This document shows positions 3,686 to 21,780 of a stretch of DNA of 64,000 nucleotides, one piece after another (within the stretch, counting starts at the first letter, position 1; every line of letters starts with the position of its first letter). This stretch comes from Cenarchaeum sp. GTDB taxonomy: Archaea; Thermoproteota; Nitrososphaeria; Nitrososphaerales; Nitrosopumilaceae. The stretch covers positions 416,001-480,000 of the forward strand of contig OY843584.1 of NCBI GenBank assembly GCA_963692915.1, in the 5' to 3' direction. A model generated the notes under the pieces. The model was not told where the DNA came from. It saw only the letters and a list, made by a program, of their open reading frames with translations, and ran no database searches. Made by a program: the position numbers and the translations under genes.

Positions 3686-3732
3686 GCTGCAGCAGAGCCC
3701 CGCCGTTCTGGCGCCCCTGCAATCACACCCGT

Positions 3733-3749: not shown

Positions 3750-3799
3750 CATGGGAGACGGGGCATGTGATGGCCCATGCGGCAGATGTGGCAGAGTGA

Positions 3800-3806
3800 T
3801 TAAATA
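3800..3806 (+). promoter_or_regulatory. putative TATA box for the giant protein gene
   Basis: TTAAATA about 25-30 nt upstream of ATG 3831 in a GC-rich context. Confidence 0.6.
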
Positions 3807-3830
3807 CTTGGGCGTTTCTCAAGGCGCACA

Positions 3831-6800
3831 ATGTGGGCTTGGAGGGTTGCCGTGGTGGCTCTATTGGGGGTTGTTGCGCTCGGTGCGATCTCGGGCGTGA
3901 TGGCCCAGGAGGCGCTGACGGCAAGCCCACTCACGACGCGCACGCTAGTCGACGGCGTGCCCACGCAGGTCCACGCAAAGGTCGGCGCGACAATATCCAT
4001 CTCCGTCGAGACGTCCTCGGCAGTCACGATTACCGCCTCGGACGTGTCGTTCTTTGGACGTGGCAGCCAGGCCGTTGCGCCAACGTCAGTGACCGGCAGC
4101 GGGACGTCATGGGAGGTGCGCCTCAACGTGGTCAACTCGCACGTCGAGGGCCCGCTGCGGTTCTGGATTACCGCCCATGATGCGGTGACGCCGACTAGCA
4201 CGATCACGCTCACCGAGGCCGACATTGCCGGACACCATGTCAGCATTGACCGGACGCGGCCAGAATTCACCATCACGCCGACGTCATCGACGACAACGCT
4301 AGTGACGCTCAACGAGCCGCTCTCGCCGCTAGTTGCCGCGTCACGCGAGCTTGACGTGTCACGTTGGTGCGTCAATGACTCACAGACCCCGCAGATCATG
4401 TGCTTATCCACTGCCGACTATAACAGGGACGTGGCGTCTGCGACCGTGCTGTCCTTGGGCCTGTCGCCGGTGATCCTGCTGACCCACGAGCCGGTGGTTC
4501 ACCTCTCGGACATGGTTGTGGTCTTTGACCACCACGACACCTCCACGCCGTTCCTGTTCACCGACGCTGCGCTGAACCTTCCGGCGATCCCCGCATCACA
4601 GTCGAGTGTTGAGGCGTCCATGCAGCGCATCTTTGGGTCCCCGCCGGCCACCTCGTCTGACCACGTGTTTCCGTTCACCGCGGAGTATGATGTGGGCAAC
4701 CGGCGGATCCTTGTGCGCATGGGAGACGCGATAGGGCTGACCGGCCAGCTGACGCTGGCTGACTGGCGTGTGGAGCACGGGGAACCTTCGCCTGATGTCG
4801 CCTCAAATGACCTCCAGACACAGACCATCTCGCAGTCTCCGCCATCCGAGACGGATCTTCACGTCAGGTACATCGGCCTTGAGTCCGCCGCGGTGGTGCC
4901 CGAGAACGCAAACCTGTGGGTCACGTACACGCCGAGCGACTCCATGCCGCTTCGCGTGGGCACCGCCGGAATGATCCTCACGGGCAGTGCCCAGTTTGCG
5001 CTAAACCCCGACACGCGGCCAACGACGCTGACGGTCAGCGCGCAGCGCGATTCGGGCTCCGGACCGGCCTCTTATGATGGCGACTTGAGGGCATCTGACA
5101 CCATCACAGTCACGATGCGCCTCAGGGAGGCGACACTGAGCACGTCAGTCCCGACGATATCGTTCTTTGGTGCGGCGGCCGTGGACATGACGGGCACTGC
5201 AGGCGGGCGGGACTGGACCGCCACGCTTGCCGTTCGTGACGATGACGCGTCCACCGATGGGGTCAACGAGGGCACGCCTGAGGGCAGCGTGGAGTTTGAC
5301 ATCACTGCGACGAACGTGGGGCGCACGGTGGTGCGCTACGACGAGTCGCACGTGACTGACGGCTCGTCGGTGAGCGTGGATCGCACGCCGCCACAGGTCC
5401 GCACGGCAAAGTTTGTGGACGCGCGCTCAGAGATACACGTTGTGCCCGATGAGCCCGTCTCGTACACGTCATTGACGGATCTCTTTACGGCCACTAGCGG
5501 CGGCTCGGAGGTGGAGCTCTCGGACGTGACGTTTGACGCGTTGCGTGGCGCATACGTGATCGAGATCACCGCGGCCGCGCAGGGCTCGACATATGTCCTC
5601 ACGCCTGCGGCGGGGGCGATCACGGACGGTGCGGGCAACGCGCTTGCCGGCTCGTTCAGCGTGGTCGACGAGTCCGCCGCGCCGACAGTCACATCAATGT
5701 CACTTGATGTCCTGCGCGCCGACGAGGCCGGCATGTATGTGCTCCGCAGCGGGGCGCACGCCGAGTACGCAATGGCCGATGACGTGATCCGCGTAACCCT
5801 CGGGCTCAACGAGATCACCAATCCCGTCACGGTGCCGACCGTGCGCTTTTTTGACCAGCAAACTCCAGTTGCCATGAACGGCTCACCGGGCGACATGGCC
5901 TGGACGGCAGACTTTCTCGTCACGTCCATGACGCGTGAGGGGTCTGTCGAGTTTGACATTGTCGCCCTGGACTATGTCGGCAATGCCGCAGACATTGACG
6001 AGACTGGCGTCACGGACATGTCAGACGCAATCGTCGACCTCACGGCGCCATTGGCGTCACCGTCCATGACGTTTAGCTACACTGCGACTCCGACGGGATT
6101 CACGCTGTTCTTTGCGGAGGATCTTGACGACACGACTGTCATGACCTCGGCCTTTGTCATAAAGAGTCCCGAGGGCGGCGTCGTCATGCAGAGTGCCGCG
6201 CCGACCTATGCGGCCTCGACGTCTAGCGCGCAGGCCGGCGTGAGCTTTACGACTGCGGCGCTCTCTGACGGGAACCACACAGTCGAGATCGCCATCTCGC
6301 TCACCGACAGGGCCGGAAACTCGTACGTGGCCGACGATGTGACCGTATACGTTGACACGACGGCCCCGACGGTGACTGGGATTGCCACCGAGTCCTCCAC
6401 GACGACAATAGTGACGCTTGATGAGGCAGTCACGGCCGACGGCAACGCAGCTCAGCGCTTGCGGCACTGGACGGTGACTGATGATGACCCTGATGGGTCG
6501 TCTGGCCCTATAGAGGCTCCCGTGAGGGCGATCTCAAACGTGGAGGTGATAGACACGGAAGGCATGGCCGCCGCGTCTGGCGAACGCATACGCATCACGC
6601 ATGCGTCCCTGGCCTCGACTGCCTCGACTCCGACTGTGGCGTATGCGCCAGTGTCTACTGACGTTGGTGGCATCGGTGCTGTCACCCTTGGCCTGGTGAC
6701 TGACGCCTCGCCACCGCTGGCCACCAGGCTTGCTGCCGTGTCGGCCACAGAGGCAGATGACCTTGCGTCCCCGACGGCGAATGATCCGAGCTTTACGAAC

Positions 6801-9800
6801 GCGCGCACGATAACGTTTACGCTGAGCGAGCCTGTGGTGCAGACGTTCCTTGAGCGAACGACCGTCTCGCCCCCCATTGGGACCCTGACTGTCGCAGTTG
6901 ACGGGCTCCGTGTCACCCTGAGCGGCACGACTAACGCCATTGACGGCACAACATACTCGATAGAGGTGCCGAGCGCCGTGACTGACTCAAAGTGTGTTGG
7001 CGTGACGGACACATGCGTGCCCAACATGTTCTCGCTCGATAGTGTAGAGCTGGCCTATGGTGACACATACGCCCCCACGGCACAGTCTGCGACCTTTTTG
7101 TCCTCCTCGCGCATAGATGTTGAGGTCAGTGAGACACTCGATGCAGACACGCTGTCTGGCATTACAGTAAGCCCGCCATTGGGAACTCTCACAGTGACCC
7201 AGTTTGACCTGACAGTCGTGATCGGCTTTACCGGCACGCCGAGTGTCGGCACGGAATATACGGTGACGATTCCGACGACGGTTACTGATGTGGCCTCTCC
7301 GGCCAACGCCTTTGCCCTCACCACGCTCGCGACGACGTACAGAGCTGACACGACTCAGCCCACAGTGGTCTCTGCCACCCAGACGTCATACGGCGTGATC
7401 GTCGTGAGGTTTAGTGAACCCATCCAGGGGACTACCAGAACGAGTGACTGGAGCATCTGGGATGACCGATATCCGGCTAATCCATTTCCTGCCATAGTGA
7501 ACGTCGCGCTAGGCGGCGGCTTTGCCACCTCTACGACTTCGCTCACAATACCTGGAACCGGTGCCCTTGTGCGAGAGATCACGCTGTCAGCCAGGGTCGA
7601 GTCCACAGAATCCAGGCCGTATACTCAGCATGTTGGGAGCGGACTTACGGATCTGTCGGGTAACGTCCTTCGAGACACTGACAGGAGCAATATCCATGGT
7701 GCCGTACGTTTCACGGACAAGGCGCCTCCTGAATCCCTGGGCATCGTGGTGGAGTCGACCAGACCACGCCAGGCAGATCTTGTTTCGGGCATCGACATTG
7801 GCACACTGCTCGTAAAGGCCGGAGACGAGGTGACATTTACTGTTGAGTTTGATGGCAGTTCGACCCCGTTTCGCGATCGTTATCTGCGCACACAACTTGA
7901 GGTAGACCCAACAATACAGTACGTTAGGGGCGGCACGACATACCCGCTGGCATTCCATAGTGATGTGGAGAACTGGTCGCACACCCTGACCATCACAGGG
8001 GACATGCCTGATGGCCTGCTCGTGCCGTTCCTGACGATCAAGGACAGAGTAGTCCAAAACGGACCGGGCAACATCGGAGAGTACCTGGGAGCATCCACCA
8101 ATCCCAATGCGTGTGACCGTATCGCGGACGCTATACCTGCGAATCGGGCGACAGGGTGCCTGCAGGGGGTGGGACTAGAGCAGGGCCTGCCACGGCTCTT
8201 CCCCACCGTGGACAACTCGCCGCCGGTGATCGAGTCAGCAGAGACGACGACGACTACGACGACGCTAGTCACGCTTGATGAGCCTGTCCTCACATCTACG
8301 GGCACGCCCGCCCAGATTGCTGACAACTGGGCGATGACTAGCGGCACAGATACCGTCAACGTCAGCTCGGCGGCCGTGGCTGGCTCTGAGGTGACGCTCA
8401 CACACGATACGCTTGACACCTATGCGACGCCGACGCTCACATACACGAGGGGGGCAACTGAGGATGCGGGACGCATCATTGACAGGGTGGATAACAGCCT
8501 TGCCCAGGCAGACTCGGTTCCGGTGGCAGACGGCACGGCGCCCGCGTTCGTCTCGGCAACCATTGGGGCATCACCGTCGCGCACAGTCACGGCGACGTTC
8601 AGCGAGGATATCGCCCGGTCCTCGGTGAGCGCCACGACGATAATGCTTGAGGACTCGGCCGGCACGGCCGTCGAGGGCACCCTGCTGTACCACGATCCAG
8701 ACAACGAGGACACCGTGGCGATAACGTTTCCGTCCAGCGCTGTGGCGCTAGACGGCATGTACACCCTGCGCATAACGACGGGGATAACGGACGCCTCGCC
8801 GCAGGCAAACCCGCTGCCAGCCGAGGCTACGGAAAGCATAGCCCTAAACACGGAGGCTCCGTACATGGTGTCGGCCACAACACGCCTTCCACCCTCATCA
8901 CTCCTTGCTCTCTCTGGATACAACACTCAAGCTGGACCTGTCAGCACCGTGTTACACTTGTATGATGGGGCACAGTCTAGGTCTGTGGTGCCCTCGCCGC
9001 TTAGCGCAATCACTACGGTGACACTCAGCGAGCCTGTGACTACGCCGGGTTCTGCCACTATGGAGAATGTGAGATCCCACTGGAAAGTTGCGGCGGGCTC
9101 GACGGACCTGACCGTGACGTCCGTTGCCGTGTCTGGCAGGACAGTCGCCATAACGCACTCTATACCGGCCAGCACGGACAGCACGTTCACGGTAACGCAC
9201 ACGGTCGGCGACAGTGCGGGGCTCGTCATGGACTCGGCGAACGCCAACATCGCAGACGATGAGAATGCCCAGTCATCTGATGGCATCATCCCACTGTGGA
9301 GCGCGCGTCTCACAGGCCCCACGACTGCGCTAGTGACGTTCAGCGAGCCGGTGATGCAGGTTCCTGGCACAACTGCCATTGACGCGTGGAGGGCATCTGG
9401 CCGCGGTGACCTTGCTGACCAGCGAATGGGAGAGGACAGGTACAGCCGCGCAAACGACGGCGATCGCCGCCTGGCAAGCGCCACGCTCTCAGATGACGGG
9501 AGGAGCATGACGCTGGAGATGAGCGCGGCAATACCCACAGACGACAGGGCGTACTCGGCCACAAACCTCCCCTGGATAAAGTACTATCCTGGCGCATTTG
9601 CGAGGCAGACGCCGCTGCCCGCCACAGCCATCGCCAACACAATCGTGGACTTGGCAGGCAATGCGCTAACTGACCGCGTGTACCAGACAGGCGACGGCAT
9701 TGCCCCCGTTCTCACAGTCGCCTCGTTTGACGGCACGACGATGAGCGTGACGTCATCCAGGCCGCTTGACTCGACGACGATCCAGGGCGGCAACTTTGTC

Positions 9801-12800
9801 CTGAGGGGGCCGGGCTCGCTGACAACCACACACACGCCGACGCTTGTGCCGGGCGGCACGACTAGCGCGTTCTCGCTGACCTTTTCGCCTGCCCTGACGC
9901 TGTCCGGCTCGTACACGATGGTTCTCGGGGACGTTTATGACACGGTCACCACGCAGCATCCGGGCGAGACCAGGGCAGGCAACCGCCTCGTCCTCAGCGA
10001 GCCGACAGTCATGTTCCTCCCGTCGGGCGCCACGAACCCAGTGCTCGCATCGGCCGAGACGCTCACAAAGACGACGACGCAAGTCACGTTTAATCAGCCC
10101 GTGGAGGGCATGACGTCGCGCAGCCAGTGGACCATCACGTCACAGGGCCTGACGATAAATGTCCTCGGCGTGGCCGCCGGCTCGGCGACACCCGTGGATA
10201 GCGCCGATCCAATAACGGTTGCCCGCAGTGGCGCGACGCTGACAATGACGCTGCTCCACGATGCCATCTCCTCGGGCCTGACGCCTGGGATTGACTATGA
10301 TCCCGCCGGCGATACCAGTATAGCCGATGCGAACAGGCTGCGCGACAACTCCAACAACGCCATATTGGGGACTGGCACCACTGGCCCCACGGCGACTGAC
10401 GGCATTCCGCCGCAGGTGTCTGATGCGACGTTCATTGCACGCAACGGGCTCCGGTTGACCTTTGAGGAGCCCCTTGCGCAGGCAAGCGTGACGGCGATGG
10501 GCACGACATTTACGATCACCGACCCGTCAGGGGATCCCGTGAGCCTTGCGAGTGATAATCCCGTGAGCTATTCCGCATCGTCACAGTCAGTCACGCTGAT
10601 CCTCGAAGACTTCACCACGGAGCATGGCGGCTATGGCATCACAATCGTCGGCGTAGCTGACACCGCGTCGCCTACCGCAAACTCGTGCACCGCCATGACG
10701 TGCACGGCAACGGCGGACCGCGAGGTTCAGCTTCCGGTCCTGGGCACCACTGGCTCGCTTGTCGCCAGCGTCCTGTCAGGCGACCCGCTGGCCGCAAAGT
10801 CCACAAACCCAAACATCGCCACGGGTGGCGACACGCTGCGTGTGGCACTCACGCTGGCCGGCATTGTGCCTGATCCCGCCGCGCCAGCCGTGATCGACTC
10901 GGCGCTCCTGAGGGATATTGACAGGCCGTCGATCAGCTTCTTTGGTGGCGAGGGGATGGCCATGACTGACGTCACACAGGCAGGCTCGCCGGCAAGGTCA
11001 TCCTGGTCTATAGACTATACCGTGCCGTCCACGCCGCAAAGGGATGCACAGGCCGAGTTTTCGATAACGGTCGGACATAACCTCGACACAGCCACGTTCA
11101 CGCGGGCCGAGCTGACGTCTGGCACGGCAGTCAGCGTTGACACAAAGCCCCCCGGCCTCTCGGCGTCTGCTGCTGACCCCCTGTACACGAGAACCGAGGC
11201 GGTGGGCGCGACTGCTGGCCTCGGCTCGGCACGCAACGCGCAAGTGGGCGACGTGATGCTCGTTGTGCTCACCACTGACGAGCCGCTCTCTGGCGTCATC
11301 CTCGGCGATGCGACATTCTCTAGCGGCCGTGCCGCAACAGATGTCTCGTCTGACCACACGTCGCGCGGAATCACCCCAGCGCTACCGGAGGACACGTACG
11401 TCTACTCGCGCACCGTGGCCTCTGATGAGCCCGAGGGTCCGGTAGAGTTCTCGATCACGGTTCGCGACGCAGTCGGCAACACGGACACCCTGGACGCCGA
11501 TGACCTGCCCACGGGGGACGACGCGACGGGCTATCGCCTGAGCGTCGACAGGACAGCGCCTACTGTGAGCAGCGCAATGTTCACCTCTCCTACAGTGCTG
11601 ACCATAACGTTCGGCGAGTCCGGGATTCAAACGCTGCCTGCGACACTCACGCTGACTAGGACATCTACGCCAGGCACGACGACTTCGACGCTGACTGCGA
11701 CGCTCTCCGGGGAGCCTGATGGCGCGTCTGTGACATACACCGTTCCGGCAATCCAGCCGTACGCCCACGAAAGCGCCGAGTACACGTTCACGCTGCCTGC
11801 GACGATCCTCGATGACGCGCTCAACGCGTACGTGCCGCCCGCAGACGACATCGTGGTCTCCGAGTCACCCGTCACGATCTCCTCGGCTGAGACATCGTCG
11901 ACTACCGTCACGGACGTCACGCTCTCGGCGCCGCCGGTCGCACTGGGCACCGATGCAACTCCTGCCACGCCAGCCACGCCTGCGCAGATCGCCTCGCACT
12001 GGTCAGTCTCTGAGGTCATCGACGGCACGACAGTCGACAGGGAGGTCACGGGCGCTGCGATAACGGACTCCACGATTCGCCTCACGCATGCGCCCCTTGC
12101 GTCATCATCCTCGACTCCCTCGGTGGCGTACACGGCTCCTGCGTCACGGGCGGTCGGACAGCTCGTTGATGCCACCTCGAGCACGCTCTCTGTCCAGACG
12201 TTTAGCGGAACCGCGGCTGATGGCGCGCCGCCCGTGATGACGGCACGCTTCACAACGCCTGCAATCATCACAGTCACGCTGGACTCGCCGTACGTGACCA
12301 CGCCGGCCGAGCGGGCTCCGGCGCTGTCAAACACAATGTCCCCGATGGACAACGCCGCGACGTTCACGCTGGCCCAGGCCCCGCCCACGACGCTCACGCT
12401 GAGCCTTGGCGGCACCGTGGATGACGGGACATACGAGTTCACAATCACGGTATATGACTCAAACGGCAACATGGGAGTACAGGCCTTTTCACTCGACAGG
12501 GACTCGACTAGCATATTCGCCTCGGCAAGAACCCTCTCGCACACAAGCGTCGAGGTCTCCTTTGCGCTCGGCACGGCGCTAGCGCAGGGCGTGACCTCCC
12601 TTGATCCCGCGCGCTGGACAGTCATCACGCCCGTGGAGGGCGCCCAGGGGGCCACAACGATCACAGTGGCCTCCGTGTCGGCCCTCGCGGACAACAAGGT
12701 GACGCTCACGCTGGCCTCGCCGGGCATTGTGGCCTCGGACGGCACGCCTGACACGGCGGCAACGCCGACCGTAAAGTACACGCGCGGCGTGGGTGCCGCC

Positions 12801-15800
12801 GTCGAGATCCTCGGCTCGACCTCTGAGGAGCTAATGTCAGACTCAAAGCGGGCAACTGATGCGGCCCCGCCGACTCCCCACTCGGCCGTGACGTCCTCGA
12901 CGACCAACGGCGAGAGGCTCGTCATGGCGTTCAGCGAGCCCCTGTACATTGGTTCCGTGGCCGCCCCCGGAATCCCAGATGCTGACATTACGTCCCAGCT
13001 CTCCATCCACGTCGACGGCGCCACGGAAGGCACGGCCCCGTCGTCCATATCGCGAAGCTCTGATGGCACAGAGCTCACGCTGGCCTATACGGGAGTATCG
13101 CTCAACCCCGTGGCCGCATCCACGTTTGTCCGATATGACGGCACGCTGCCTGTCGGCGAGCGCATTCTAGACGTCGTGCCCAACACGCTGTCTAATGCTG
13201 CCCTGGACACGCTCGTGACGGACATGATAGTGCCGTCGATATCCTCGGCCAGGACTGCGGGGGCCACGACGACAGAGGTCACGTACGACGAGCCGATCGC
13301 CCTGGTCGGCGACCCCGCCTCACTCTATGCGATAGAATTTCCGGCCGGAACCACGACGCCCCCCGGCTCTGTGGCCATAAAGGCCGGCGATCCCAGCGTG
13401 GCTGTCCTGACGCACTCGTCTGTCACGTATGGGGTGGACTCTACTGCGACTCTGGCCTACACGGCCGGCACGGCAACGCAGTCCGTGACTGATGCGGCAG
13501 CGGGCGCAAACAGGGCAGAGGCGGTCACGGCGGTGCGAATTGCCGACGGGATCGCCCCAAAGATAACGGAGGTGGAGACTGAGTCGCAGACAACGACGAT
13601 CGTGACGCTTGATGGCCCTGTAACGGCCGGCGGTGATGCCGCACAGCGCTCGCGGCACTGGACCGTGACTGACGTTGACCCTGACGGCACAGGGCCGGTG
13701 GCCGCGCCAGACAGGGCAGTCTCGGGAGTCGACACCATTGACGCGGCTGGCGCCATAGCCACATCGGGCATGCGCATTCGCCTCACGCATGCCGAGCTCT
13801 CAGACACGGCCTCGACGCCGACTGTCGCGTATGTCGCGCGCGTCGACAGCAATGCGGACGGCACGATCGACGCCTTAGACGAGCCAAGCAGGGTCATCGA
13901 CCCCGCCGTCGATGCGCTCAGCATGCCGGCGCCAAACATACTGGCCGACTATACGACGACTGCAACTGACAAGGCGCCGCCGGTTATAACGGCAAGGTTT
14001 GCGACTGCGACATCGATAACCCTGACGCTCAGCGAGCCCATAGAGCGCACGACGGCGCTCCTCACGCGCTCCAACTGGGACATTGACAGCGCAGGAACCG
14101 GTGACAATCCCCGCCTGCTCCAGACCTCCACGCAAACGGAGACGGCCGTGTCATACCCCGCCTCCACGCCATTATCCATGACGATTCGCCTTAACGATGC
14201 CGCATCTGACAATGTCCACACGCTTACCATCCCGGCCGGTATAGTCGACAGGGCAGATACGCCCAACGCCTATGTGGCATCGCGTGCGCTGACCGTCGAT
14301 CCGATCGCAGGAGTCGCGTTTACGGCAAGTGCGACAGGACAGTCAACGATCGAGATCACGTTCACCACGGACGTCGAGAGGATCGGCTCCGCTCCGCTGG
14401 CCACCTCGGCATGGATCGTCTACGAGACACCAACACAGGGCACACAGGCAGAGCGCATCCCGATCTCCTCAGTCTCAGCCCTTGCCGACAACAAGGTGAC
14501 ACTGACGCTCTCGCCCTCGCCTGGCAGGGATGCGCAGACGTCGACTGGAAAAACGCCATACGTCGAGTATGTGCGCGACACCTCTGAGTTTAGGGATGTG
14601 GCCACGCGTGTGCCCCTTGCGGCAGAGGCGAGCGCGGTTGCCACTGATGACACCGACCCGACGATAAAGTCGGCTAGAACGTCATCGACCACGCAGATCA
14701 CCGTCACGCTCAACGAGCCAGTCGGATTTGTGGGCACGGGAGCCAATGCGCCATCTACGGCAGGCCAGATCGCGCAGTGGAGTGCATGCGTCCCGCCCGA
14801 GGGTTCCTCGTCATGCAGTGTGGCCGAGACGCTCTCGAGCATCGGCATAGCCATCTCTGGCTCCACAGTGACGCTGAACTTTGCGCCGGCTGACGAATGG
14901 GAGACAGACGTCGTGCCGGTTGTGACATACCGCAACATCGACGAGCCAGAGGACTCTGAGACGCCCGTGGCTGACCTCTCGGAGCGCGCGCGCGCACGCC
15001 TAGTCGACGTCAACGGCAATGGCATGGACGCAGTGTCGTACCAGTCCGCTGACGGCGTCGCGCCGGTCATCGTGTCGGCATCGACGGCCTCGGTCAGATC
15101 CATCAACGTCGTGCTCTCCGAGGTGTCCGTGTTCGCCCCCGCGTCATCCACGTCGGCACAGCGTGGGCCTCACTGGACGGCCACTGTGGATGGCGATAGC
15201 AGTGTGGGCTCGACTGCGGCGATATCGACGGTATCGGGCACCTCGACTCTCACGTTCCGCGTCGCCTCTGATGACGCATGGACTGGAGACGACTCCCCGA
15301 CTGTCGCCTATGTGAACCCTGCCGGTGCCGGACGCGTGACTGACGTGCATGGCAACGCCATGCTGGTGGCCTCTGGGGTGATGACGACCAATGTGGCGGC
15401 TCCCGAGCTGCTCAGCGCAAGGACGGTGTCGCTTGGCCGCACCGAAGTGGTGGTCTCAAAACCCGCCCAGATCAACGCTGGCACGGCCGCACAGGTGATT
15501 GGGCACTGGTCACTTTTGGACATCGACGGGGATGACGCCGGCGATGCCCCTGATCCCGTGACGATCAGGGGTGTCCGCCTCGATGACAGCATATCCCACG
15601 AGCCGGGCTCGTCTGTCGTAGAGCTCTCCCTGTCCGGCTCGCTGCCAAATGGTGTCCACGAGATAACCGCACGCAGCACGATCGCCTCGACGGGAGGCGC
15701 GACGCCCTCGTCTGACCAGACGACGCGCATTACGTCCTATGTCCCGCCGATGGTCCTTGAGGACCTAACCTTGGGTGATGATCGCATATCGCTGCTGTTC

Positions 15801-18800
15801 AGCCACGATGTGGAAGAGTCCACCATCCTGGGCAGCCTAGTCCTGCCATCAACCATGACAGTGCGGGGAGACGACCCTGTGTCATTCCAAAGACTCAACA
15901 ACAAATTGGTCCATGTGGACGTGACGAGGACGCCGGACCTCGTGGAGAGCGTCACAATACGGGACACGATACGCTCAACTGAGGGACACCGGCCGCTCGG
16001 CGACCAGGTGATCAGCAAGTCGACCACCTCACAATCCCTCAGCGATGCTGGCGTGTCTCCTGACGGACGGTCAATATTGCTCGACTTTGACGCCGAAATC
16101 TCTGCAGCATCGGCAGTCGTGGCCGCCTTTGAGCTCCCAACAGGAGTCAGCTTTGCCGCATCTAGCCCCGTGGTGACCACGGCAGGCTCCACTCTCGTCA
16201 CGCTCAACCTGTCCTCACAGCTGCCCAGGGGCATTCACACAATCTCGACAAAGGAGACACCCGCACTGGTCAGTACGACTGGCTCCGTCCTGTATCAGGG
16301 CACGCACACAATTACGTGGGATCCGGCACCACACGTCCTTGAGCACGTCTCGACGTCGCCGGACGGCCGGACAATAACGCTCCACTTTAGCAGGTCAGTG
16401 GACACGAGCACGCTCACGCCGGCCAACATTGCGCTCTCGACGGGCACTGCGCTAACGCAGTCCCAGATATCGCACGCCGTCGGCCCCAGGGTGACGATCA
16501 CGCTTGATGCGCCGCTGGCCACAGGCACGCACTCTGTGACGGTGCGCACGGGCGTGACTGCGTCAGGGTACCCACTGCCCGGCGAGACGGTCAGGTCGTT
16601 TGTCCACATGCCGTCTGCGCCATCCATCACCTCGGCGTCGCTCTCAGATGACGGGCGAACAGTGACGCTGGTCTTTAGCCACGCGCTGGACTCGGCCACA
16701 GTCACGCCCGCGGCCCTGTCATACTCTGAGGCCCTTGAAGGCGTGGTCGGGGACAGAACGCGCCTGATCATAGATCACGACGATCTCTCCGGACCGGGGG
16801 CGGCACCAACACTGTCATACGACCCTGACACGTCGACTAGTGGGACCATTGCCCTCAATGGCGTCTCCACGTCGCTGGTGGAGGAGACGCCATCCCTGGC
16901 CGTGGCTGACGGCATCCCGCCGCGGCTCGTCGGCGACCCCGAGCTAGTGGGCTGGTCATTTGGCAAGATTTTTGGGCCTGAAAGCACCGAGACTCCCCCG
17001 CGAAACATGCAAGACGCCGTTAGGTTCACGTTTAGCGAACCGATGAACAGGGATGACCTGATCGTCACATTCGATGTTGGCGGAGCACAGGTTTCTGCTG
17101 CGCCGGGTCAGTTCGCTTTCTATCAAGGTTCTAGTGTGACAGCCCCTGGTAACACCTTTCTTAACACGCATAGAGGACAAATTATTTTCCCTTTGACATA
17201 CAAGACCGACGCGGGGATAGTTCGATTTGCCCCCTTGCCTGAATATCGGGATGAATCTACGTGGGGCCAGGTCATTCCTGGCTATAACAGCTTTGATCTT
17301 CCCCGAGCTGCGCTTGGTGCACACCTTGACACCACGAACATGATATACACGATCTATAATCAGGGCGGTGCGACCACAGAGGGTCTTGGTTTCGTTCGAT
17401 TTATAGATCTGGCAGATCACCCGACCGTTCAACTACGAGACGTGGCCGGAAATCCGTACATTCCCGACCAGTCCAGGAAACATGATGAATTTATCCTAGA
17501 GACAGACACTGTGGGTCCGAAGTTTCGTGCCAAAGTGGCCTCGCCGACACAGATCAATGTAGAGTATCTGGAACCCGTGGAGATCAAGCAGGGTCGGGAG
17601 CTGCGATCCGCTGATTGGAGGATAGATCTGACGCCAGACGACGATAGTGACAACGAAGACGGCAACCTCAATTGGATTGGGCCCACGGCAGTCACTCACG
17701 CGTTTGACGAGTTCCCCAACCCCGAATTCCTCTCCTATGGTGACCTTGGAACCAGGTCGAGACTCACGGTCATGCTCACAGTAGACCCGCCAACGGAGAC
17801 TGTGAATGCCATGTCGCCCCTTGACGCGACTCCCCTTGACGTGCACTATGTCGCAAGCTCGGCAGATGTCGCCGATGCGCGCTCTCATGACGCCGTTGTG
17901 CCATTCGCCTTCGAGTACCGTCCAGGGGTAACTGACAACACAGGCCATGACGCAATCGCGCCGGCTGCGGCATCACTGGTGACCACAGTCGAGCGACCGA
18001 CTGCCACGGAGGGGGAGTTTGCCGAACGAACAGGCGCGTTTGCGCATTACGCGATGGCTGGTGACAGGATCACGGTCAGCGCAGTGCTTGACTCACCGGC
18101 GCTTGCTGCAACCGCTGACGCGGGAGTGGACGTGGGCGTGCTCACGCCGTACCTGGAGCTGGGAACATACGCTGTGAACATGGAACAGGGCACCCCGCCG
18201 CAATACAGCGTCGTAATTCCCACGACAGTCACTGATGCTGATGGGATAGCGTTTGCTGCAGACACTAGCCACGCCGTGACGTACGTTGCCTCGCCGCCGA
18301 CACTCTCAAACCCGAGCTTTGGCGCCCCGTCGAGGATATTCATTGAGACAAGCGAGCCGCTAGATGACACGACGCTAACGCCCACTAGCGTCAGCGTGGA
18401 AGGGCTTGAGACGGTGCGGGTTGACCGCGAGATCGACCGCGTGGTGATAAACACGCGACATGACGCGATCCCAGGAAAATCGTACACGATCCGCATTGCC
18501 GACACGGTCACTGACACTGACGGGGTTGCCACGGCCGCAACGACGCTGTCGGTGCAATATCCCGTAAAGGCAACTGCGACTGCAAGGTTTGCCAATGACA
18601 ATCGTCTGGTTATAACGACCAGCGAGTGGATCGTCGAGAGCAATATATTGGACAGATACGTATCGCTCTCTGCAGTCGGGGGCACGTCGGAACCGCTGGA
18701 TCTCAAATCCGCTACATTCTTCTTCCCGCATCTCGGATTTAATATTGATGATGACGTGCCGACTGGCACGTACGAGCTCACATTCTCTGACTCGTTAGTG

Positions 18801-19502
18801 ACGAGCGCGGGCACGACGTTTGAGAGCCCGATCCTAGTTGAGCATGTGGCAGGCCTGCGGACGCCAGAGGGGGCGCCGACGGCATCCAACGTTAGGTTCT
18901 TTGGCCCGGAGCACATACAGTTCGAGATGGACCAGTATCCTGCCACATCGACGCTTGAGAACATCGAGGTTCCGACGCTTGGGGTAAAGCGCGTCTCGCG
19001 CGATGCACTGACGATCACGCTGGCCCTGGAGGGCCGCGCCGACAGGGTATCGTGGCAAGCGTCGTGGATCGTGCCGACTGCGGACTCCACGACGCTGACG
19101 CAGGGCCCAATTGACTTTACGATCACCGCCACGGATGCGGCCGGCAACGCAGGCGACATTGGGCAGTCAAGCGTGTCGACGGGAACCAACAATGCCATAG
19201 TCGACACGACGTTGCCGACATTTGAGGCAGCCATCGTGGCCTCAGACCGCACGAGCGTGACGTTCGTCGAGCCTGCGCGCGGGACGATCGTCGCGTCCGA
19301 GTGGTGCGTCGAGGGCATCGCCTCGGTGGGAGTGTCAGCTGACGGTGTAGAGTTTGCGCCGTCATACCCTGTCGTTGACGCGGCGACAGTCACGGAGGGC
19401 CAGACGTTCATCCTGCGCCACACCGCAGTGCCGCACGGAACCGAGCCGACAGTAGAGTACTCGCCAGGCGAGCCGTGCGCGCCAGATGCGCCCAGCGGAT
19501 AG
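3831..19502 (+). CDS. giant secreted/surface protein (5223 aa) of tandem Ig-like beta-sandwich repeats, putative adhesin
   Basis: N-terminal signal peptide (RVAVVALLGVVALGAISGVMA-Q); Thr/Ser/Asp/Val-rich; recurring ~90-120 aa modules (VTLxEP...HW...LTH...TPTVxY...DGxxP; VTDxxGN; EGxVEFxI...VDxTxP). Confidence 0.88.
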   Translation: MWAWRVAVVALLGVVALGAISGVMAQEALTASPLTTRTLVDGVPTQVHAKVGATISISVETSSAVTITASDVSFFGRGSQAVAPTSVTGSGTSWEVRLNVVNSHVEGPLRFWITAHDAVTPTSTITLTEADIAGHHVSIDRTRPEFTITPTSSTTTLVTLNEPLSPLVAASRELDVSRWCVNDSQTPQIMCLSTADYNRDVASATVLSLGLSPVILLTHEPVVHLSDMVVVFDHHDTSTPFLFTDAALNLPAIPASQSSVEASMQRIFGSPPATSSDHVFPFTAEYDVGNRRILVRMGDAIGLTGQLTLADWRVEHGEPSPDVASNDLQTQTISQSPPSETDLHVRYIGLESAAVVPENANLWVTYTPSDSMPLRVGTAGMILTGSAQFALNPDTRPTTLTVSAQRDSGSGPASYDGDLRASDTITVTMRLREATLSTSVPTISFFGAAAVDMTGTAGGRDWTATLAVRDDDASTDGVNEGTPEGSVEFDITATNVGRTVVRYDESHVTDGSSVSVDRTPPQVRTAKFVDARSEIHVVPDEPVSYTSLTDLFTATSGGSEVELSDVTFDALRGAYVIEITAAAQGSTYVLTPAAGAITDGAGNALAGSFSVVDESAAPTVTSMSLDVLRADEAGMYVLRSGAHAEYAMADDVIRVTLGLNEITNPVTVPTVRFFDQQTPVAMNGSPGDMAWTADFLVTSMTREGSVEFDIVALDYVGNAADIDETGVTDMSDAIVDLTAPLASPSMTFSYTATPTGFTLFFAEDLDDTTVMTSAFVIKSPEGGVVMQSAAPTYAASTSSAQAGVSFTTAALSDGNHTVEIAISLTDRAGNSYVADDVTVYVDTTAPTVTGIATESSTTTIVTLDEAVTADGNAAQRLRHWTVTDDDPDGSSGPIEAPVRAISNVEVIDTEGMAAASGERIRITHASLASTASTPTVAYAPVSTDVGGIGAVTLGLVTDASPPLATRLAAVSATEADDLASPTANDPSFTNARTITFTLSEPVVQTFLERTTVSPPIGTLTVAVDGLRVTLSGTTNAIDGTTYSIEVPSAVTDSKCVGVTDTCVPNMFSLDSVELAYGDTYAPTAQSATFLSSSRIDVEVSETLDADTLSGITVSPPLGTLTVTQFDLTVVIGFTGTPSVGTEYTVTIPTTVTDVASPANAFALTTLATTYRADTTQPTVVSATQTSYGVIVVRFSEPIQGTTRTSDWSIWDDRYPANPFPAIVNVALGGGFATSTTSLTIPGTGALVREITLSARVESTESRPYTQHVGSGLTDLSGNVLRDTDRSNIHGAVRFTDKAPPESLGIVVESTRPRQADLVSGIDIGTLLVKAGDEVTFTVEFDGSSTPFRDRYLRTQLEVDPTIQYVRGGTTYPLAFHSDVENWSHTLTITGDMPDGLLVPFLTIKDRVVQNGPGNIGEYLGASTNPNACDRIADAIPANRATGCLQGVGLEQGLPRLFPTVDNSPPVIESAETTTTTTTLVTLDEPVLTSTGTPAQIADNWAMTSGTDTVNVSSAAVAGSEVTLTHDTLDTYATPTLTYTRGATEDAGRIIDRVDNSLAQADSVPVADGTAPAFVSATIGASPSRTVTATFSEDIARSSVSATTIMLEDSAGTAVEGTLLYHDPDNEDTVAITFPSSAVALDGMYTLRITTGITDASPQANPLPAEATESIALNTEAPYMVSATTRLPPSSLLALSGYNTQAGPVSTVLHLYDGAQSRSVVPSPLSAITTVTLSEPVTTPGSATMENVRSHWKVAAGSTDLTVTSVAVSGRTVAITHSIPASTDSTFTVTHTVGDSAGLVMDSANANIADDENAQSSDGIIPLWSARLTGPTTALVTFSEPVMQVPGTTAIDAWRASGRGDLADQRMGEDRYSRANDGDRRLASATLSDDGRSMTLEMSAAIPTDDRAYSATNLPWIKYYPGAFARQTPLPATAIANTIVDLAGNALTDRVYQTGDGIAPVLTVASFDGTTMSVTSSRPLDSTTIQGGNFVLRGPGSLTTTHTPTLVPGGTTSAFSLTFSPALTLSGSYTMVLGDVYDTVTTQHPGETRAGNRLVLSEPTVMFLPSGATNPVLASAETLTKTTTQVTFNQPVEGMTSRSQWTITSQGLTINVLGVAAGSATPVDSADPITVARSGATLTMTLLHDAISSGLTPGIDYDPAGDTSIADANRLRDNSNNAILGTGTTGPTATDGIPPQVSDATFIARNGLRLTFEEPLAQASVTAMGTTFTITDPSGDPVSLASDNPVSYSASSQSVTLILEDFTTEHGGYGITIVGVADTASPTANSCTAMTCTATADREVQLPVLGTTGSLVASVLSGDPLAAKSTNPNIATGGDTLRVALTLAGIVPDPAAPAVIDSALLRDIDRPSISFFGGEGMAMTDVTQAGSPARSSWSIDYTVPSTPQRDAQAEFSITVGHNLDTATFTRAELTSGTAVSVDTKPPGLSASAADPLYTRTEAVGATAGLGSARNAQVGDVMLVVLTTDEPLSGVILGDATFSSGRAATDVSSDHTSRGITPALPEDTYVYSRTVASDEPEGPVEFSITVRDAVGNTDTLDADDLPTGDDATGYRLSVDRTAPTVSSAMFTSPTVLTITFGESGIQTLPATLTLTRTSTPGTTTSTLTATLSGEPDGASVTYTVPAIQPYAHESAEYTFTLPATILDDALNAYVPPADDIVVSESPVTISSAETSSTTVTDVTLSAPPVALGTDATPATPATPAQIASHWSVSEVIDGTTVDREVTGAAITDSTIRLTHAPLASSSSTPSVAYTAPASRAVGQLVDATSSTLSVQTFSGTAADGAPPVMTARFTTPAIITVTLDSPYVTTPAERAPALSNTMSPMDNAATFTLAQAPPTTLTLSLGGTVDDGTYEFTITVYDSNGNMGVQAFSLDRDSTSIFASARTLSHTSVEVSFALGTALAQGVTSLDPARWTVITPVEGAQGATTITVASVSALADNKVTLTLASPGIVASDGTPDTAATPTVKYTRGVGAAVEILGSTSEELMSDSKRATDAAPPTPHSAVTSSTTNGERLVMAFSEPLYIGSVAAPGIPDADITSQLSIHVDGATEGTAPSSISRSSDGTELTLAYTGVSLNPVAASTFVRYDGTLPVGERILDVVPNTLSNAALDTLVTDMIVPSISSARTAGATTTEVTYDEPIALVGDPASLYAIEFPAGTTTPPGSVAIKAGDPSVAVLTHSSVTYGVDSTATLAYTAGTATQSVTDAAAGANRAEAVTAVRIADGIAPKITEVETESQTTTIVTLDGPVTAGGDAAQRSRHWTVTDVDPDGTGPVAAPDRAVSGVDTIDAAGAIATSGMRIRLTHAELSDTASTPTVAYVARVDSNADGTIDALDEPSRVIDPAVDALSMPAPNILADYTTTATDKAPPVITARFATATSITLTLSEPIERTTALLTRSNWDIDSAGTGDNPRLLQTSTQTETAVSYPASTPLSMTIRLNDAASDNVHTLTIPAGIVDRADTPNAYVASRALTVDPIAGVAFTASATGQSTIEITFTTDVERIGSAPLATSAWIVYETPTQGTQAERIPISSVSALADNKVTLTLSPSPGRDAQTSTGKTPYVEYVRDTSEFRDVATRVPLAAEASAVATDDTDPTIKSARTSSTTQITVTLNEPVGFVGTGANAPSTAGQIAQWSACVPPEGSSSCSVAETLSSIGIAISGSTVTLNFAPADEWETDVVPVVTYRNIDEPEDSETPVADLSERARARLVDVNGNGMDAVSYQSADGVAPVIVSASTASVRSINVVLSEVSVFAPASSTSAQRGPHWTATVDGDSSVGSTAAISTVSGTSTLTFRVASDDAWTGDDSPTVAYVNPAGAGRVTDVHGNAMLVASGVMTTNVAAPELLSARTVSLGRTEVVVSKPAQINAGTAAQVIGHWSLLDIDGDDAGDAPDPVTIRGVRLDDSISHEPGSSVVELSLSGSLPNGVHEITARSTIASTGGATPSSDQTTRITSYVPPMVLEDLTLGDDRISLLFSHDVEESTILGSLVLPSTMTVRGDDPVSFQRLNNKLVHVDVTRTPDLVESVTIRDTIRSTEGHRPLGDQVISKSTTSQSLSDAGVSPDGRSILLDFDAEISAASAVVAAFELPTGVSFAASSPVVTTAGSTLVTLNLSSQLPRGIHTISTKETPALVSTTGSVLYQGTHTITWDPAPHVLEHVSTSPDGRTITLHFSRSVDTSTLTPANIALSTGTALTQSQISHAVGPRVTITLDAPLATGTHSVTVRTGVTASGYPLPGETVRSFVHMPSAPSITSASLSDDGRTVTLVFSHALDSATVTPAALSYSEALEGVVGDRTRLIIDHDDLSGPGAAPTLSYDPDTSTSGTIALNGVSTSLVEETPSLAVADGIPPRLVGDPELVGWSFGKIFGPESTETPPRNMQDAVRFTFSEPMNRDDLIVTFDVGGAQVSAAPGQFAFYQGSSVTAPGNTFLNTHRGQIIFPLTYKTDAGIVRFAPLPEYRDESTWGQVIPGYNSFDLPRAALGAHLDTTNMIYTIYNQGGATTEGLGFVRFIDLADHPTVQLRDVAGNPYIPDQSRKHDEFILETDTVGPKFRAKVASPTQINVEYLEPVEIKQGRELRSADWRIDLTPDDDSDNEDGNLNWIGPTAVTHAFDEFPNPEFLSYGDLGTRSRLTVMLTVDPPTETVNAMSPLDATPLDVHYVASSADVADARSHDAVVPFAFEYRPGVTDNTGHDAIAPAAASLVTTVERPTATEGEFAERTGAFAHYAMAGDRITVSAVLDSPALAATADAGVDVGVLTPYLELGTYAVNMEQGTPPQYSVVIPTTVTDADGIAFAADTSHAVTYVASPPTLSNPSFGAPSRIFIETSEPLDDTTLTPTSVSVEGLETVRVDREIDRVVINTRHDAIPGKSYTIRIADTVTDTDGVATAATTLSVQYPVKATATARFANDNRLVITTSEWIVESNILDRYVSLSAVGGTSEPLDLKSATFFFPHLGFNIDDDVPTGTYELTFSDSLVTSAGTTFESPILVEHVAGLRTPEGAPTASNVRFFGPEHIQFEMDQYPATSTLENIEVPTLGVKRVSRDALTITLALEGRADRVSWQASWIVPTADSTTLTQGPIDFTITATDAAGNAGDIGQSSVSTGTNNAIVDTTLPTFEAAIVASDRTSVTFVEPARGTIVASEWCVEGIASVGVSADGVEFAPSYPVVDAATVTEGQTFILRHTAVPHGTEPTVEYSPGEPCAPDAPSG

Positions 19503-19688
19503 GCCCCCGACGGCGGCGCACTATAGGGGCCGGGGCATGCACAGCCCACCACGAAGAACACACTTGAATTCTTTAGAGACCGGCTCGAAGACGCTATAGT
19601 CTACTGAGCTTTTCCACGTTCTGCACAACGGCAAAATTGTGCTCTTTTGCGATTTGCTCTAATGACCCCATGTTGTGCATCTTCCATG

Positions 19689-21548: not shown

Positions 21549-21570
21549 GCCTAGGCGGCAGGCGTTTCTC

Positions 21571-21598
21571 TATATATACCAATATTTTAGTTTAAATA
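21571..21598. promoter_or_regulatory. putative divergent promoter pair (TATATATA for the ATPase gene; TTTAAATA facing the repeat array)
   Basis: TATATATA 21571-21578 lies 23-30 nt from the minus-strand ATG 21548; TTTAAATA 21591-21598 lies about 27 nt before repeat unit 1. Confidence 0.5.
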
Positions 21599-21624
21599 GT
21601 ATGGAGCCCGTTTTAGCCATAATT

Positions 21625-21780
21625 CCGACAAATACCTTATTTTCTCCACTTTGAATGATTTGCACTTTTGCCGACAAATACCCCATTTTCTCCATCTTGA
21701 ATGATTTGCACTTTTGCCGACAAATACCTCATTCTCCCCACTTTGCATGATTTGTTCTTTTTGCCGAAAAATGCCTCGTT
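21625..21780. repeat. AT-rich 46-47 bp tandem repeat, ~3.4 copies
   Basis: Units start at 21625, 21671, 21717 and 21764; TTGAATGATTTGCACTTTTGCCGACAAATACC is identical at 21651-21682 and 21697-21728. Confidence 0.93.

Follow-up and report, generated by a model that had tools for sequence, protein, structure and literature searches.

A split Ig-like module carrying an out-of-phase block of three modules in a giant thaumarchaeal surface protein, with a predicted closed-ring fold

Split and permuted domains are known from three kinds of system. In the RTX adhesins MpIBP and FrhA, a split Ig-like domain hosts a single globular ligand-binding domain, which is a PA14, a peptide-binding or a sugar-binding domain (PMC10865825). 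In the tandem domain swap, two neighbouring domains that are identical or similar and joined by a short linker misfold together; according to the review on it, no such structure had by then been deposited in the PDB (Lafita et al. 2019, PMC6863430). A survey of ECOD describes multi-level nested insertions, in which the inserted domains are sometimes circularly permuted, e.g. in RNA polymerase insertions (PMC13114784). Here we describe an archaeal gene that shares features with each of the three. The window, i.e. the whole 64,000-nucleotide stretch of Cenarchaeum sp. contig OY843584.1 that was analysed and to which all coordinates refer, contains a giant ORF of Ig-like modules (3831..19502, plus strand) encoding 5223 aa. 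Judged by eye, the ORF starts with a signal-peptide-like N-terminus. Big_5 is the sole Pfam family in the protein, with 83.2 bits on the N-terminal half, and the genes around the ORF are housekeeping genes according to a scan of the ORFs in the window. The organism is a Cenarchaeum-like, sponge-associated thaumarchaeon, and the product of the giant ORF (P0001) is an Ig-repeat surface protein. It carries two cassettes, numbered by their order in the gene. The second is an old, conserved arrangement, predicted to fold into a closed ring.

A type-C module interrupted by 281 codons

In cassette 2, exactly 281 codons (843 nt, 18192–19034) separate the two parts of a type-C module. Its N-part ends with MEQG at residue 4787, and its C-part begins with RADRV at residue 5069, so the gap that an earlier note on this DNA had reported proved exact. 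The peptides quoted in that note were located at residues 4740, 4780, 5069, and 5123 for the host module, at residue 681 for its intact sibling, and at residues 4788, 5016, and 5060 for the insert. The N-part (Hn) spans residues 4705–4787 (17943..18191), the C-part (Hc) spans residues 5069–5135 (19035..19235), and the intact sibling that serves as the reference for the split spans residues 610–745 (5658..6065), all on the plus strand. With this sibling as the phmmer reference, Hn corresponds to profile positions 7–51 and Hc to positions 70–132. A type-C profile was also built from 26 intact modules, the split copies being left out. It places Hn at positions 4–55 and Hc at positions 72–133 (E 1.5e-9), and in all five proteins compared the two halves are complementary, with Hn at 3/4–55/61 and Hc at 71/75–133. 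In hhalign, Hn matches columns 6–56 of the type-C alignment (E 1.7e-9). When Hn and Hc were joined by script, the product matched the type-C profile over its full length (130 columns, probability 98.5, E 1.6e-15), and the scores are near-additive, as the joined sequence scores 90.7 and the halves score 53.1 and 46.0 singly. Pfam matched no family to Hn, Hc, or the intact sibling when each was searched singly.

At the C-terminus of the distant homologue P0009, a type-C module without interruption (profile positions 3–133) is followed by a last module homologous to the C-terminal A/B-like module that follows the host in the giant protein (residues about 5133–5214, 19227..19472, plus strand). The best alignment of the two proteins in this part (P0009 2481–2611 with P0001 5071–5212, 38% identity, E 6e-20) begins at the first residues of Hc. 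The profile halves, the joined alignment, and the intact P0009 homologue agree that the host is a discontinuous Ig-like module whose two pieces belong to one fold, and the split described in the earlier note is borne out.

The insert consists of the C-part of a Big_5-like module (Xc), two whole modules (Y and Z), and an N-part (Xn), all on the plus strand. Xc opens the insert with the last two strands of its module (residues 4788–4826, 18192..18308). It aligns with columns 68–85 of the B-type profile in hhalign (E 6e-4), and also with the C-part of one P0009 module. Y is a complete Big_5-like module (residues 4827–4912, 18309..18566) that matches the B-type profile over its full length (E 3.4e-9) and scores 22.1 bits with Pfam Big_5 (PF13205), the gathering cut-off being 23.6. 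Z is a complete but divergent Ig-like module (residues 4913–5010, 18567..18860), aligned by hhalign to 80 columns of the B-type profile (E 1.3e-4). Xn closes the insert (residues 5011–5068, 18861..19034) and was assigned as the N-part of a Big_5-like module by its alignment with an N-part in P0009. Searched singly, Z, Xc, and Xn have no Pfam match. Xn (58 aa) and Xc (39 aa) add up to 97 aa, compared with 86 aa for Y and 98 aa for Z.

On its own, Xn has no significant match to the B-type profile (E 0.1), whereas the rejoined Xn and Xc align with it over 35 columns that include the new joint (E 3.9e-5). The whole insert is collinear with the in-phase tandem array of P0009 (28% identity, E 2e-10), and this alignment begins in the C-part of one module and finishes in the N-part of the fourth. 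Hence, the view that the insert is a phase-shifted three-module block of another type is supported by Xc, by the rejoined pieces, and by the P0009 array, but not by Xn on its own. Xc precedes Xn in sequence, which is the order of a circular permutation; what lies between them is Y and Z with 184 aa, not a direct joint or a short linker. As host and insert are of different module types, unequal crossover between like repeats is ruled out as the explanation. The best paralogue of the insert, residues 960–1214 of the same protein, is only 29–31% identical, and no donor can therefore be named for cassette 2.

The motif AGGGC occurs on the plus strand at both ends of the insert, as the note had observed, on the left at 18187..18191 in codons for Q-G and on the right at 19030..19034 in codons for E-G. 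The E-G pair is invariant in orthologues, and the orthologous DNA of L002 lacks the left AGGGC at the left junction. In cassette 1, GACAG occurs at 15585–15589 and at 16752–16756, 1167 nt apart. A 5-mer match of this kind has a chance of 2–4% at fixed length and of 15–27% if the junction may slide by two to three codons. Both pairs were rejected as unproven signatures of a mechanism.

Conservation of the arrangement and the other cassette

Cassette 2 is collinear in five other assemblies (P0003, P0004, P0005, P0006, and L002) at 47–49% identity. Chromosome OY843768.1 (L001), which is 98% identical to the window over the 11.6 kb of the gene compared, has the same arrangement, and the independent assemblies that share it include a 1.98-Mb chromosome-level record. 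The arrangement is neither recent nor an assembly artefact. The event that produced it is ancient, preceding the split from the orthologues of about 48% identity. Within the region, conservation is highest in the permuted domain, specifically in its segment Xn, which is 73% identical to the orthologues with zero indels, compared with 42% for the host halves; Z evolves fastest with 31% identity. A profile search of the whole library of 1.84 billion representatives returned five proteins at E <= 1e-3, two of them at E <= 1e-30, and the alignments available for fold prediction consequently have only 4–6 rows.

Cassette 1 has the order An-Dc-D-D-D-Dn-Ac, the same topology as cassette 2, and lies on the plus strand. 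The N-part of its type-A host (residues about 3858–3919, 15402..15587) matches type-A profile positions 1–54 (E 4.5e-10), and the C-part (residues 4308–4362, 16752..16916) matches positions 47–119 (E 3.4e-9), with a type-A profile built from orthologues only. Between them (residues 3920–4307/8, 15588..16751), the D profile identifies a C-part Dc (positions 39–88, E 3.5e-5), three whole D modules of the Big_5 kind, and an N-part Dn (positions 3–34, E 9e-8); module D3 scores 33.4 bits with Pfam Big_5. At this position, the orthologues have an intact empty site. Over about 5000 aligned residues, P0001 and the orthologues differ by no other large indel than cassette 1, and in this comparison, made without an outgroup, the indel is compatible with an insertion as well as with a precise deletion. 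Among proteins of 680–2000 aa, the donor search for cassette 1 gave no match, and among proteins of 2872–9141 aa it gave the protein's own cluster only.

Given a second cassette in the same gene and the empty site of the orthologues there, this type of event recurred, and the sequences indicate that an event of this kind occurred at least twice, at different times. The earlier note had taken two such events to suggest a recurring diversification. The recurrence holds up, with a second cassette of the same topology and its empty site in orthologues, and an active mechanism is not supported.

Predicted fold and competing explanations

The explanation that we consider probable is a fixed nested architecture, in which a loop of the type-C module is split by an out-of-phase, three-module Big_5-like slice, the host and X are both re-formed, and the whole closes into a ring. 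The interrupted mid-domain loop would hold a block of exactly three Big_5-like modules cut out of phase. In the folded protein, Hn and Hc would most likely re-form the host domain, and Xn and Xc would most likely re-form a circularly permuted X, whose natural ends are bridged by Y and Z. In this way, three domains would make up a closed ring that hangs from the host, in effect a hard-wired "tandem domain swap" topology.

A different fold, which we regard as unlikely, is a plain string hybrid-Y-Z-hybrid, in which Hn and Xc make up one Ig domain and Xn and Hc make up another. It could have originated from two in-frame deletions that fused neighbours in an older H-X-Y-Z-X'-H' array. In four of the five proteins, P0001 being the exception, an unbiased B-type profile indeed spans late Hn and Xc at positions 2–79/83 of 85, and the E-values over the left junction in those four are 2.5e-4, 2.7e-4, 0.0018, and 0.051. 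A Y-seeded profile reaches E 4e-9 to 1e-12 at the left junction, although it may have absorbed these segments, and Pfam Big_13, with a match that fails its cut-off, aligns over the right junction (E 0.0032). A "strand B + (S/D)EP" pattern is common to type-B and type-C modules, and owing to this pattern their N-halves may be interchangeable. Against such hybrids stands the intact host module of P0009 at the same position. The two cut points, as deduced from strand patterns, appear to be non-equivalent, so that one hybrid would be a strand short and the other would have one extra. Moreover, the origin by deletion takes two events and an intermediate that is unlikely to fold.

The fold predictions bear on the same choice. 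AF2 modelled the insert alone with a pLDDT of 82.8 and a pTM of 0.71, the latter unlike that of a loose string. In this model, the pLDDT is 79–88 for Xc, 86–92 for Y, 63–87 for Z, and 83–87 for Xn. Neither Xc nor Xn is a whole domain, yet both are confident here, where the partners they would have in hybrids are missing. In the full-region model, the pLDDT of Xc (64–71) resembles that of Xn (56–67), and the pLDDT of Hn (29–49) resembles that of Hc (24–43), which is the pairing that the nested fold predicts and not that of hybrids; the host domain itself is poorly modelled, with values of 24–49. We also made a two-chain prediction, with Hn and Xc as chain 1, Xn and Hc as chain 2, and our own alignment of four rows. 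It lent weak support to the nested fold, with a score of 0.59 compared with 0.09 for the best of three controls, and with at least 64% contact agreement between runs and a partner pLDDT of at least 67. When the partner was replaced, the pLDDT fell from 62–76 to 43–49 for chain 1 and to 46 for chain 2, so each chain is poor without the other, which speaks weakly against two self-contained hybrids. Among 157 solved complexes, 116 reach the mark for such predictions, as do 2 of 215 mismatched pairs, counts that apply only roughly to our four-row alignment. Only 18 of the 157 solved complexes reach it with a score of 0.60 or less, and both of the mismatched pairs that pass do so as well. The two halves may also pass this test through their likeness to solved Ig folds.

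In Foldseek searches of the PDB, both models match generic Ig arrays only, the S-layer proteins SbsC and SbsB being among the best matches. The query-normalised TM-scores are at most 0.36, and so there is no solved structure with the same overall arrangement. ESM Atlas returned only look-alikes of Big_5, Big_12, and Big_13, the value of which for recognition is low. On the whole, the models favour the nested fold over two hybrid domains, and the proposed closure of the ring is read from their confidence scores.

Far less credible than hybrids is an active, programmed diversification, in which mobile cassettes are excised as circles and re-inserted via 5-bp repeats, giving rise to variants in the population. 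It would account for the presence in one gene of two cassettes that share a topology and are each flanked by 5-bp direct repeats (AGGGC and GACAG), for whole-number slices as the automatic outcome of circle excision between repeats, and for the difference in cassette 1 between lineages. But cassette 2 is a fixed feature of six assemblies whose protein identity goes down to about 48%, and the window shows zero structural differences from the 98%-identical chromosome over the 11.6 kb of the gene compared, which gives no support to the excised circles and empty sites that the note proposed to look for. The modules within each cassette are only distantly alike and thus offer no DNA-level repeat for homologous excision. 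The 5-bp repeats lie within chance, the left AGGGC is missing in L002, and in neither cassette does the GC content at the three codon positions stand out. Dedicated machinery is not apparent either, as a scan of 36 ORFs in the window gave no recombinase, transposase, or reverse-transcriptase domain and the neighbours are housekeeping genes. With no such enzyme nearby and no structural variant between the window and L001, the locus does not resemble a DGR, a shufflon, or an integron-like cassette. An assembly or annotation artefact, whether repeats joined into a chimera or a gene that really lies on the opposite strand, is scarcely conceivable despite the long repetitive gene and a 504-aa antisense ORF overlapping the region (18047–19561, minus strand), since on the present data the agreement of independent assemblies rules out the chimera considered in the note, the modules are too divergent in DNA for mis-assembly, 14 of the 19 differences from L001 in nt 17943–19499 fall at third codon positions of the giant ORF frame, and the antisense ORF has no Pfam match.

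If the nested architecture is right, it may go back to one rare in-frame, non-homologous insertion, by which a whole number of repeat units, cut from a tandem array out of phase, entered the host loop. This could have happened by template switching, by illegitimate recombination, or through the re-insertion of a circle that had been excised between repeats. The insert would have survived because only such a slice joins its own two ends and hence fits into a hairpin loop. Cassette 1 would stem from a younger event of the same kind. As to function, the protein may form a filament resembling an adhesin or an S-layer, from which the ring would project as a rigid side branch that exposes the variable Z. 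More tentatively, and at somewhat under even chances, the two cassettes may represent a recurrent, undescribed route by which out-of-phase slices grow side branches, the permuted domain closing a three-domain ring in cassette 2 and a four-domain ring in cassette 1, as a native and selected form of the "tandem domain swap". No phase-shifted multi-domain Ig cassette was found in the literature covered, which did not extend to subscription journals.

Significance and relation to known architectures

Should the predicted fold be true, the gene would hold two natural closed Ig rings, each with a permuted domain nested in a split domain. Their "before" states exist in nature: P0009 represents that of cassette 2, and that of cassette 1 is seen in the orthologues. 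A tandem array would then give rise to domain insertion and circular permutation simultaneously, in a single step, and there would be a reason why only whole-number, out-of-phase slices survive, which makes this a case for researchers in protein evolution and design. For annotation, the cassettes are a warning that profile-based domain callers yield half-domains and "unknown" stretches in such proteins. The findings on the cassettes do not so far inform on ligand or host recognition in the sponge symbiosis.

The comparison with RTX adhesins (PMC10865825) gives a common principle: a discontinuous Ig-like β-sandwich hosts an insert whose ends lie side by side, and the insert points sideways from a long Ig filament at the cell surface. 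Different from those adhesins, the insert here is a three-module Ig array whose end pieces must complement each other. Instead of a globular ligand-binding domain, it comprises Big_5-like Ig modules only. The gene belongs to an archaeon, and in its 5223-aa product, where Big_5 is the only Pfam family, no signs of RTX repeats or type-I secretion were seen; nor does Pfam identify the host module as a BIg domain. Judged by Pfam and by the Foldseek matches SbsC and SbsB, the insert modules belong with those of Big_5 (SbsA-type) S-layer and surface proteins. The low TM-scores set the overall arrangement apart from solved structures, and Y remains just under the Pfam cut-off.

The tandem domain swap (PMC6863430) has a "terminal" domain made of the outer N- and C-pieces and a "central" circular permutant in which the C-piece comes before the N-piece, and the topology predicted here has the same two elements. 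Unlike that misfolded state, the arrangement here is predicted to be native and conserved, it involves two domain types, and two whole domains act as the "linker". With the nested cases of ECOD (PMC13114784), it shares domains within domains and permuted inserts. In the usual nested order A1-B1-C-B2-A2, the N-part of the middle domain still precedes the C-part, and this domain hosts the inner one, whereas the order here is A1-B2-C-D-B1-A2, i.e. Hn-Xc-Y-Z-Xn-Hc, and An-Dc-D-D-D-Dn-Ac in cassette 1. A further difference from those cases is that the insert corresponds to a homologous tandem array sliced out of phase; such an insert occurs twice in this one protein, and homologues with an empty site exist. 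In the light of these comparisons, the best reading of the arrangement is that of a new variant of the split-domain and permuted-insert architectures.

The split type-C module and its insert

The giant ORF (3831-19502, + strand) encodes a protein of 5223 aa with a start that is signal-peptide-like by eye and a remainder consisting of a chain of Ig-like modules, among which Big_5 is the sole Pfam family recognised (83.2 bits). Its neighbours are housekeeping genes, namely shikimate-pathway genes upstream and genes for a GHKL-type ATPase and cysteinyl-tRNA synthetase downstream, and so are other genes across the window. An ORF of 995 aa at 25247-28234 (+), starting 5.7 kb past the end of the giant gene, has no Pfam family at E ≤ 0.001. 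As context only, expanded S-layer-like protein sets with suggested adhesion roles are described for sponge thaumarchaeal symbionts in the parts cited of PMC6790972.

Cassette 2 lies near the 3' end of the giant gene, and the peptides and coordinates quoted for it in the earlier note are all correct. The type-C module ending in ...YAVNMEQG at aa 4787 is separated by 281 codons (nt 18192-19034) from RADRVSWQ..., which starts at aa 5069. With one intact type-C sibling (aa 610-745) in phmmer, the upstream piece (Hn) matches positions 7-51 and the downstream piece (Hc) positions 70-132. A further profile contained 26 intact type-C modules drawn from five proteins, split copies excluded. In each of the five it covers Hn from position 3/4 to 55/61, with E values of 3e-4 to 3e-9, and its positions 71/75-133 match Hc, with E values of 1.5e-9 to 3e-3. 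When joined, Hn and Hc align with the type-C alignment over 130 columns in hhalign (prob 98.5, E 1.6e-15) with a score of 90.7, near the sum of the separate pieces (53.1 and 46.0); alignment is weak at profile positions about 56-70. In our own reading of the motifs, "AVNMEQG|RADRVSWQASWIVP" of the split module matches "PVAMNGSPGDMAWTADFLV" of the sibling. As the halves match complementary parts of the profile and align over 130 columns once joined, the host module is genuinely split, and profile alignment in five of five proteins agrees with the claim that the halves form one type-C module. Another type-C module, at 7710-8237 (aa 1294-1469), has 176 aa compared with about 134 in its siblings, with Cys-containing extra sequence apparently within the C-terminal part; this has the look of a minor elaboration inside the domain and not of a nested cassette.

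The insert is composed of four parts on the + strand, assigned by profile matches and alignment: the C-part of a B-type module (Xc, aa 4788-4826), a whole module (Y, aa 4827-4912), a whole but divergent module (Z, aa 4913-5010), and the N-part of a B-type module (Xn, aa 5011-5068). With a profile built without the cassette 2 region, Y is a B-type (Big_5-like) module over its full length (E 3.4e-9); it scores 22.1 bits in Pfam Big_5, slightly below the 23.6 cut-off, while Z gives a weak full-length B-type match (80 columns, E 1.3e-4). Xc matches columns 68-85, at the end of the B-type profile (E 6e-4), and Xn on its own is not significant against that profile (E 0.1); once joined, Xn and Xc align over 35 columns that span the new joint (E 3.9e-5). 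The phase of the insert is indicated most clearly by P0009, a distant homologue of 2615 aa, in which aa 1174-1500 form a regular in-phase tandem array collinear with the insert (28% identity, E 2e-10), the alignment running from the C-part of one module to the N-part of a fourth. Since Xn and Xc sum to 97 aa, one module length, the insert is, as judged from alignment, an out-of-phase slice of a tandem array that spans a whole number of modules, and "circularly permuted", as the earlier note had put it, is upheld in this sense.

AGGGC is present at both cassette ends as had been claimed, but as a signature it is unproven, given its chance rates and the missing left copy in the DNA of the orthologue locus L002. 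Within the giant ORF, a 5-mer match arises by chance in 2-4% of cases at a fixed in-frame offset a few bases from the junction, and in 15-27% with junctions sliding 2-3 codons. Each copy codes for "x-Gly" at a strand end, and the right-hand E-G is invariant among orthologues. A silent-site relic of AGGGC is not expected because the event is old.

Conservation and the empty site

When each species was represented by one genome, a scan returned two loci, one on OY843768.1 (Cenarchaeum sp. MAG, chromosome 1) and one on a Thaumarchaeota archaeon S13 contig (49% identical). In a word-indexed search, three giant orthologues (P0003-P0005) each align as a single collinear HSP with 47-49% identity across 98-99% of aa 4690-5223; P0006 (47% identity) was added by a full-library profile search, and with L002 the assemblies number six. 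All orthologues keep the order Hn-Xc-Y-Z-Xn-Hc, so that the arrangement can be neither a chimera of assembly nor recent.

The part-domain Xn (18861-19034) is the most conserved region of cassette 2, with 73% identity to orthologues and no indels, and the whole module Z (18567-18860) the least, with 31% identity and 13 indel columns. In between are Y (60%), Xc (56%, no indels), and Hn and Hc (42-43%). The contrast between Xn and Z would be consistent with a structural hub and a tip that is exposed. Of the two junctions, the right one (...LALEG|RADRV...) hardly varies, and the left one is poorly conserved.

At its C-terminal end, P0009 has a type-C module without interruption (profile positions 3-133) and, as its final module, one of the kind that is last in P0001, the giant protein of the window. 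The best alignment, between P0009 2481-2611 and P0001 5071-5212 (38% identity, E 6e-20), begins at P0001 5071 and therefore where Hc begins; the likeness of the N-part is below BLAST reach. P0009 "...AAHNMAPSGG|DRMAWTHSHTVP" corresponds to P0001 "YAVNMEQG|[281 aa]|RADRVSWQASWIVP". P0009 is thus an empty-site comparator for cassette 2.

At the DNA level, the window and OY843768.1 are 98.05% identical over 11.6 kb of the giant gene. Directly past the gene's end, OY843768.1 has ~945 bp extra that are missing from the window (window 19531-22113; OY843768.1 locus 11588-21293); the following 2.6 kb are merely 82.5% identical, and then no more match is reported. Set against the 98.05% of the gene, this mosaic divergence could reflect gene recombination/exchange or a variable flank. 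Within nt 17943-19499, plus-frame third positions account for 14 of the 19 differences. The giant gene also contains long ORFs on its antisense strand, of up to 504 aa, e.g. 11627-13078 (-) and 18047-19561 (-); the latter, of 504 aa, covers cassette 2 and has no Pfam match. Such ORFs are probably a side effect of GC-rich coding. The insert is not distinct from its surroundings in GC by codon position.

Predicted fold of cassette 2

If the cassette is nested, Hn and Hc would rebuild the host domain, Xn and Xc would rebuild a permuted domain X, and Y and Z would link the natural ends of X into a closed ring. A full-region AF2 prediction with 4 rows is mediocre (pLDDT 60.9); in it the pLDDT of Xc (64-71) resembles that of Xn (56-67), and that of Hn (29-49) resembles that of Hc (24-43). 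The insert alone, with 6 rows, reaches pLDDT 82.8 and pTM 0.71 (Xc 79-88, Xn 83-87). Such confidence for two strands (Xc) and a four-strand fragment (Xn) would not be expected unless they pack together, and the predicted pTM of 0.71 is at odds with a loose string of domains.

The other reading, which also agrees with the sequence but is unlikely in our judgement, is linear, with Hn+Xc and Xn+Hc forming two hybrid domains. An unbiased B-type profile does span the left junction almost full-length in four of five proteins (E 2.5e-4 to 0.051), P0001 being the exception, and Pfam Big_13 spans the right junction at E 0.0032, below its cut-off; we read these matches as a strand-B/"(S/D)EP" pattern common to both module types. 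The two readings differ for a two-chain prediction of Hn+Xc (chain 1) and Xn+Hc (chain 2), from which an intertwined dimer is expected if nested and independent domains if linear. The verdict is weak support for the dimer, with a score of 0.59 (runs 0.62, 0.47, and 0.59) against 0.09 for the best of three controls. Among solved complexes 116 of 157 reach the mark, as do 2 of the 215 mismatched pairs; at ≤0.60 only 18 of the 157 do so, together with both passing mismatches. These counts are approximate here, since the alignment was our own. At least 64% of contacts are shared between the runs, with partner pLDDT of at least 67. Swapping the partner for an unrelated protein lowers pLDDT from 62-76 to 43-49 for chain 1 and from 67-76 to 46 for chain 2. 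Ig-fold halves may pass this test via likeness to solved structures. On this indirect evidence, the predicted nested, three-dimensional ring is likely for cassette 2.

Cassette 1, proposed origin, and known systems

The word "second" in the earlier note implied another cassette, which we found at 15402-16916 (aa 3858-4362) of the same gene. Its type-A host module is in two pieces, aa 3858-3909/19 and aa 4291/4308-4362, matching an orthologue-only type-A profile at positions 1-54 (E 4.5e-10) and 47-119 (E 3.4e-9). The 389 codons that split this module comprise a D-module C-part (Dc; D profile 39-88, E 3.5e-5), three whole Big_5-type D modules, of which D3 scores 33.4 bits as Big_5, and an N-part (Dn; 3-34, E 9e-8). 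Orthologues P0003-P0006 are without cassette 1 and have the type-A module intact: the flanks meet to within 2 residues in both P0004 and P0006, and to within 12 residues in P0005. In P0003, with the left flank extending to 3907 and the HSP of the right flank lying at 3859-4022, there is no space for 389 residues. P0001 and P0004 are collinear in blocks 35-3918 and 4308-5223, and the 389-residue gap is their sole large indel. GACAG, at 15585 and 16752 (1167 nt apart), flanks cassette 1, with chance rates as for AGGGC. No donor array was matched among proteins of 680-2000 aa and 2872-9141 aa. The indel may be either an insertion in the window's lineage or a precise loss in the other; as every other type-A module is intact, an insertion occurred sometime.

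The two nested, phase-shifted, whole-number cassettes differ in host module type, phase of the inserted modules, and age. Recurrence, as proposed earlier, is supported on evolutionary time scales and not on population time scales. An active diversification mechanism is not supported, since the order in cassette 2 is old and fixed, the window and OY843768.1 have no strain-level structural variation across 11.6 kb, and none of the 36 ORFs scanned in the window encodes a recombinase, transposase, or reverse transcriptase. Each cassette may have arisen by a single in-frame non-homologous insertion of a tandem-array slice. By our own estimate, a slice would be whole-number within a few residues in ~1 in 15 cases at random (period about 95 residues), and two such cases would point to either selection for self-closing inserts or a route that gives complete units, for example when a circle is cut out between repeats and then re-inserted. 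Structural logic favours selection, because an in-phase three-domain rod has distant ends and cannot fit a hairpin loop; in an out-of-phase whole-number block, the split domain would re-form and the block's ends would meet.

The literature searched, with most subscription journals outside, does not describe any phase-shifted cassette of several Ig domains that is nested within another Ig module. The parts cited of a 2026 survey (PMC13114784) report insertions in 20% of multidomain proteins and nested A1-B1-C-B2-A2 patterns, and note that circularly permuted inserted domains can occur. Split Ig-like domains of RTX adhesins hold an inserted ligand-binding domain sideways, as far as described in PMC10865825; the window protein is alike in design but fails the family's remaining features. 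The cassette topology equals that of the "tandem domain swap", known, in the text cited of PMC6863430, as a misfold with no PDB structure in 2019.
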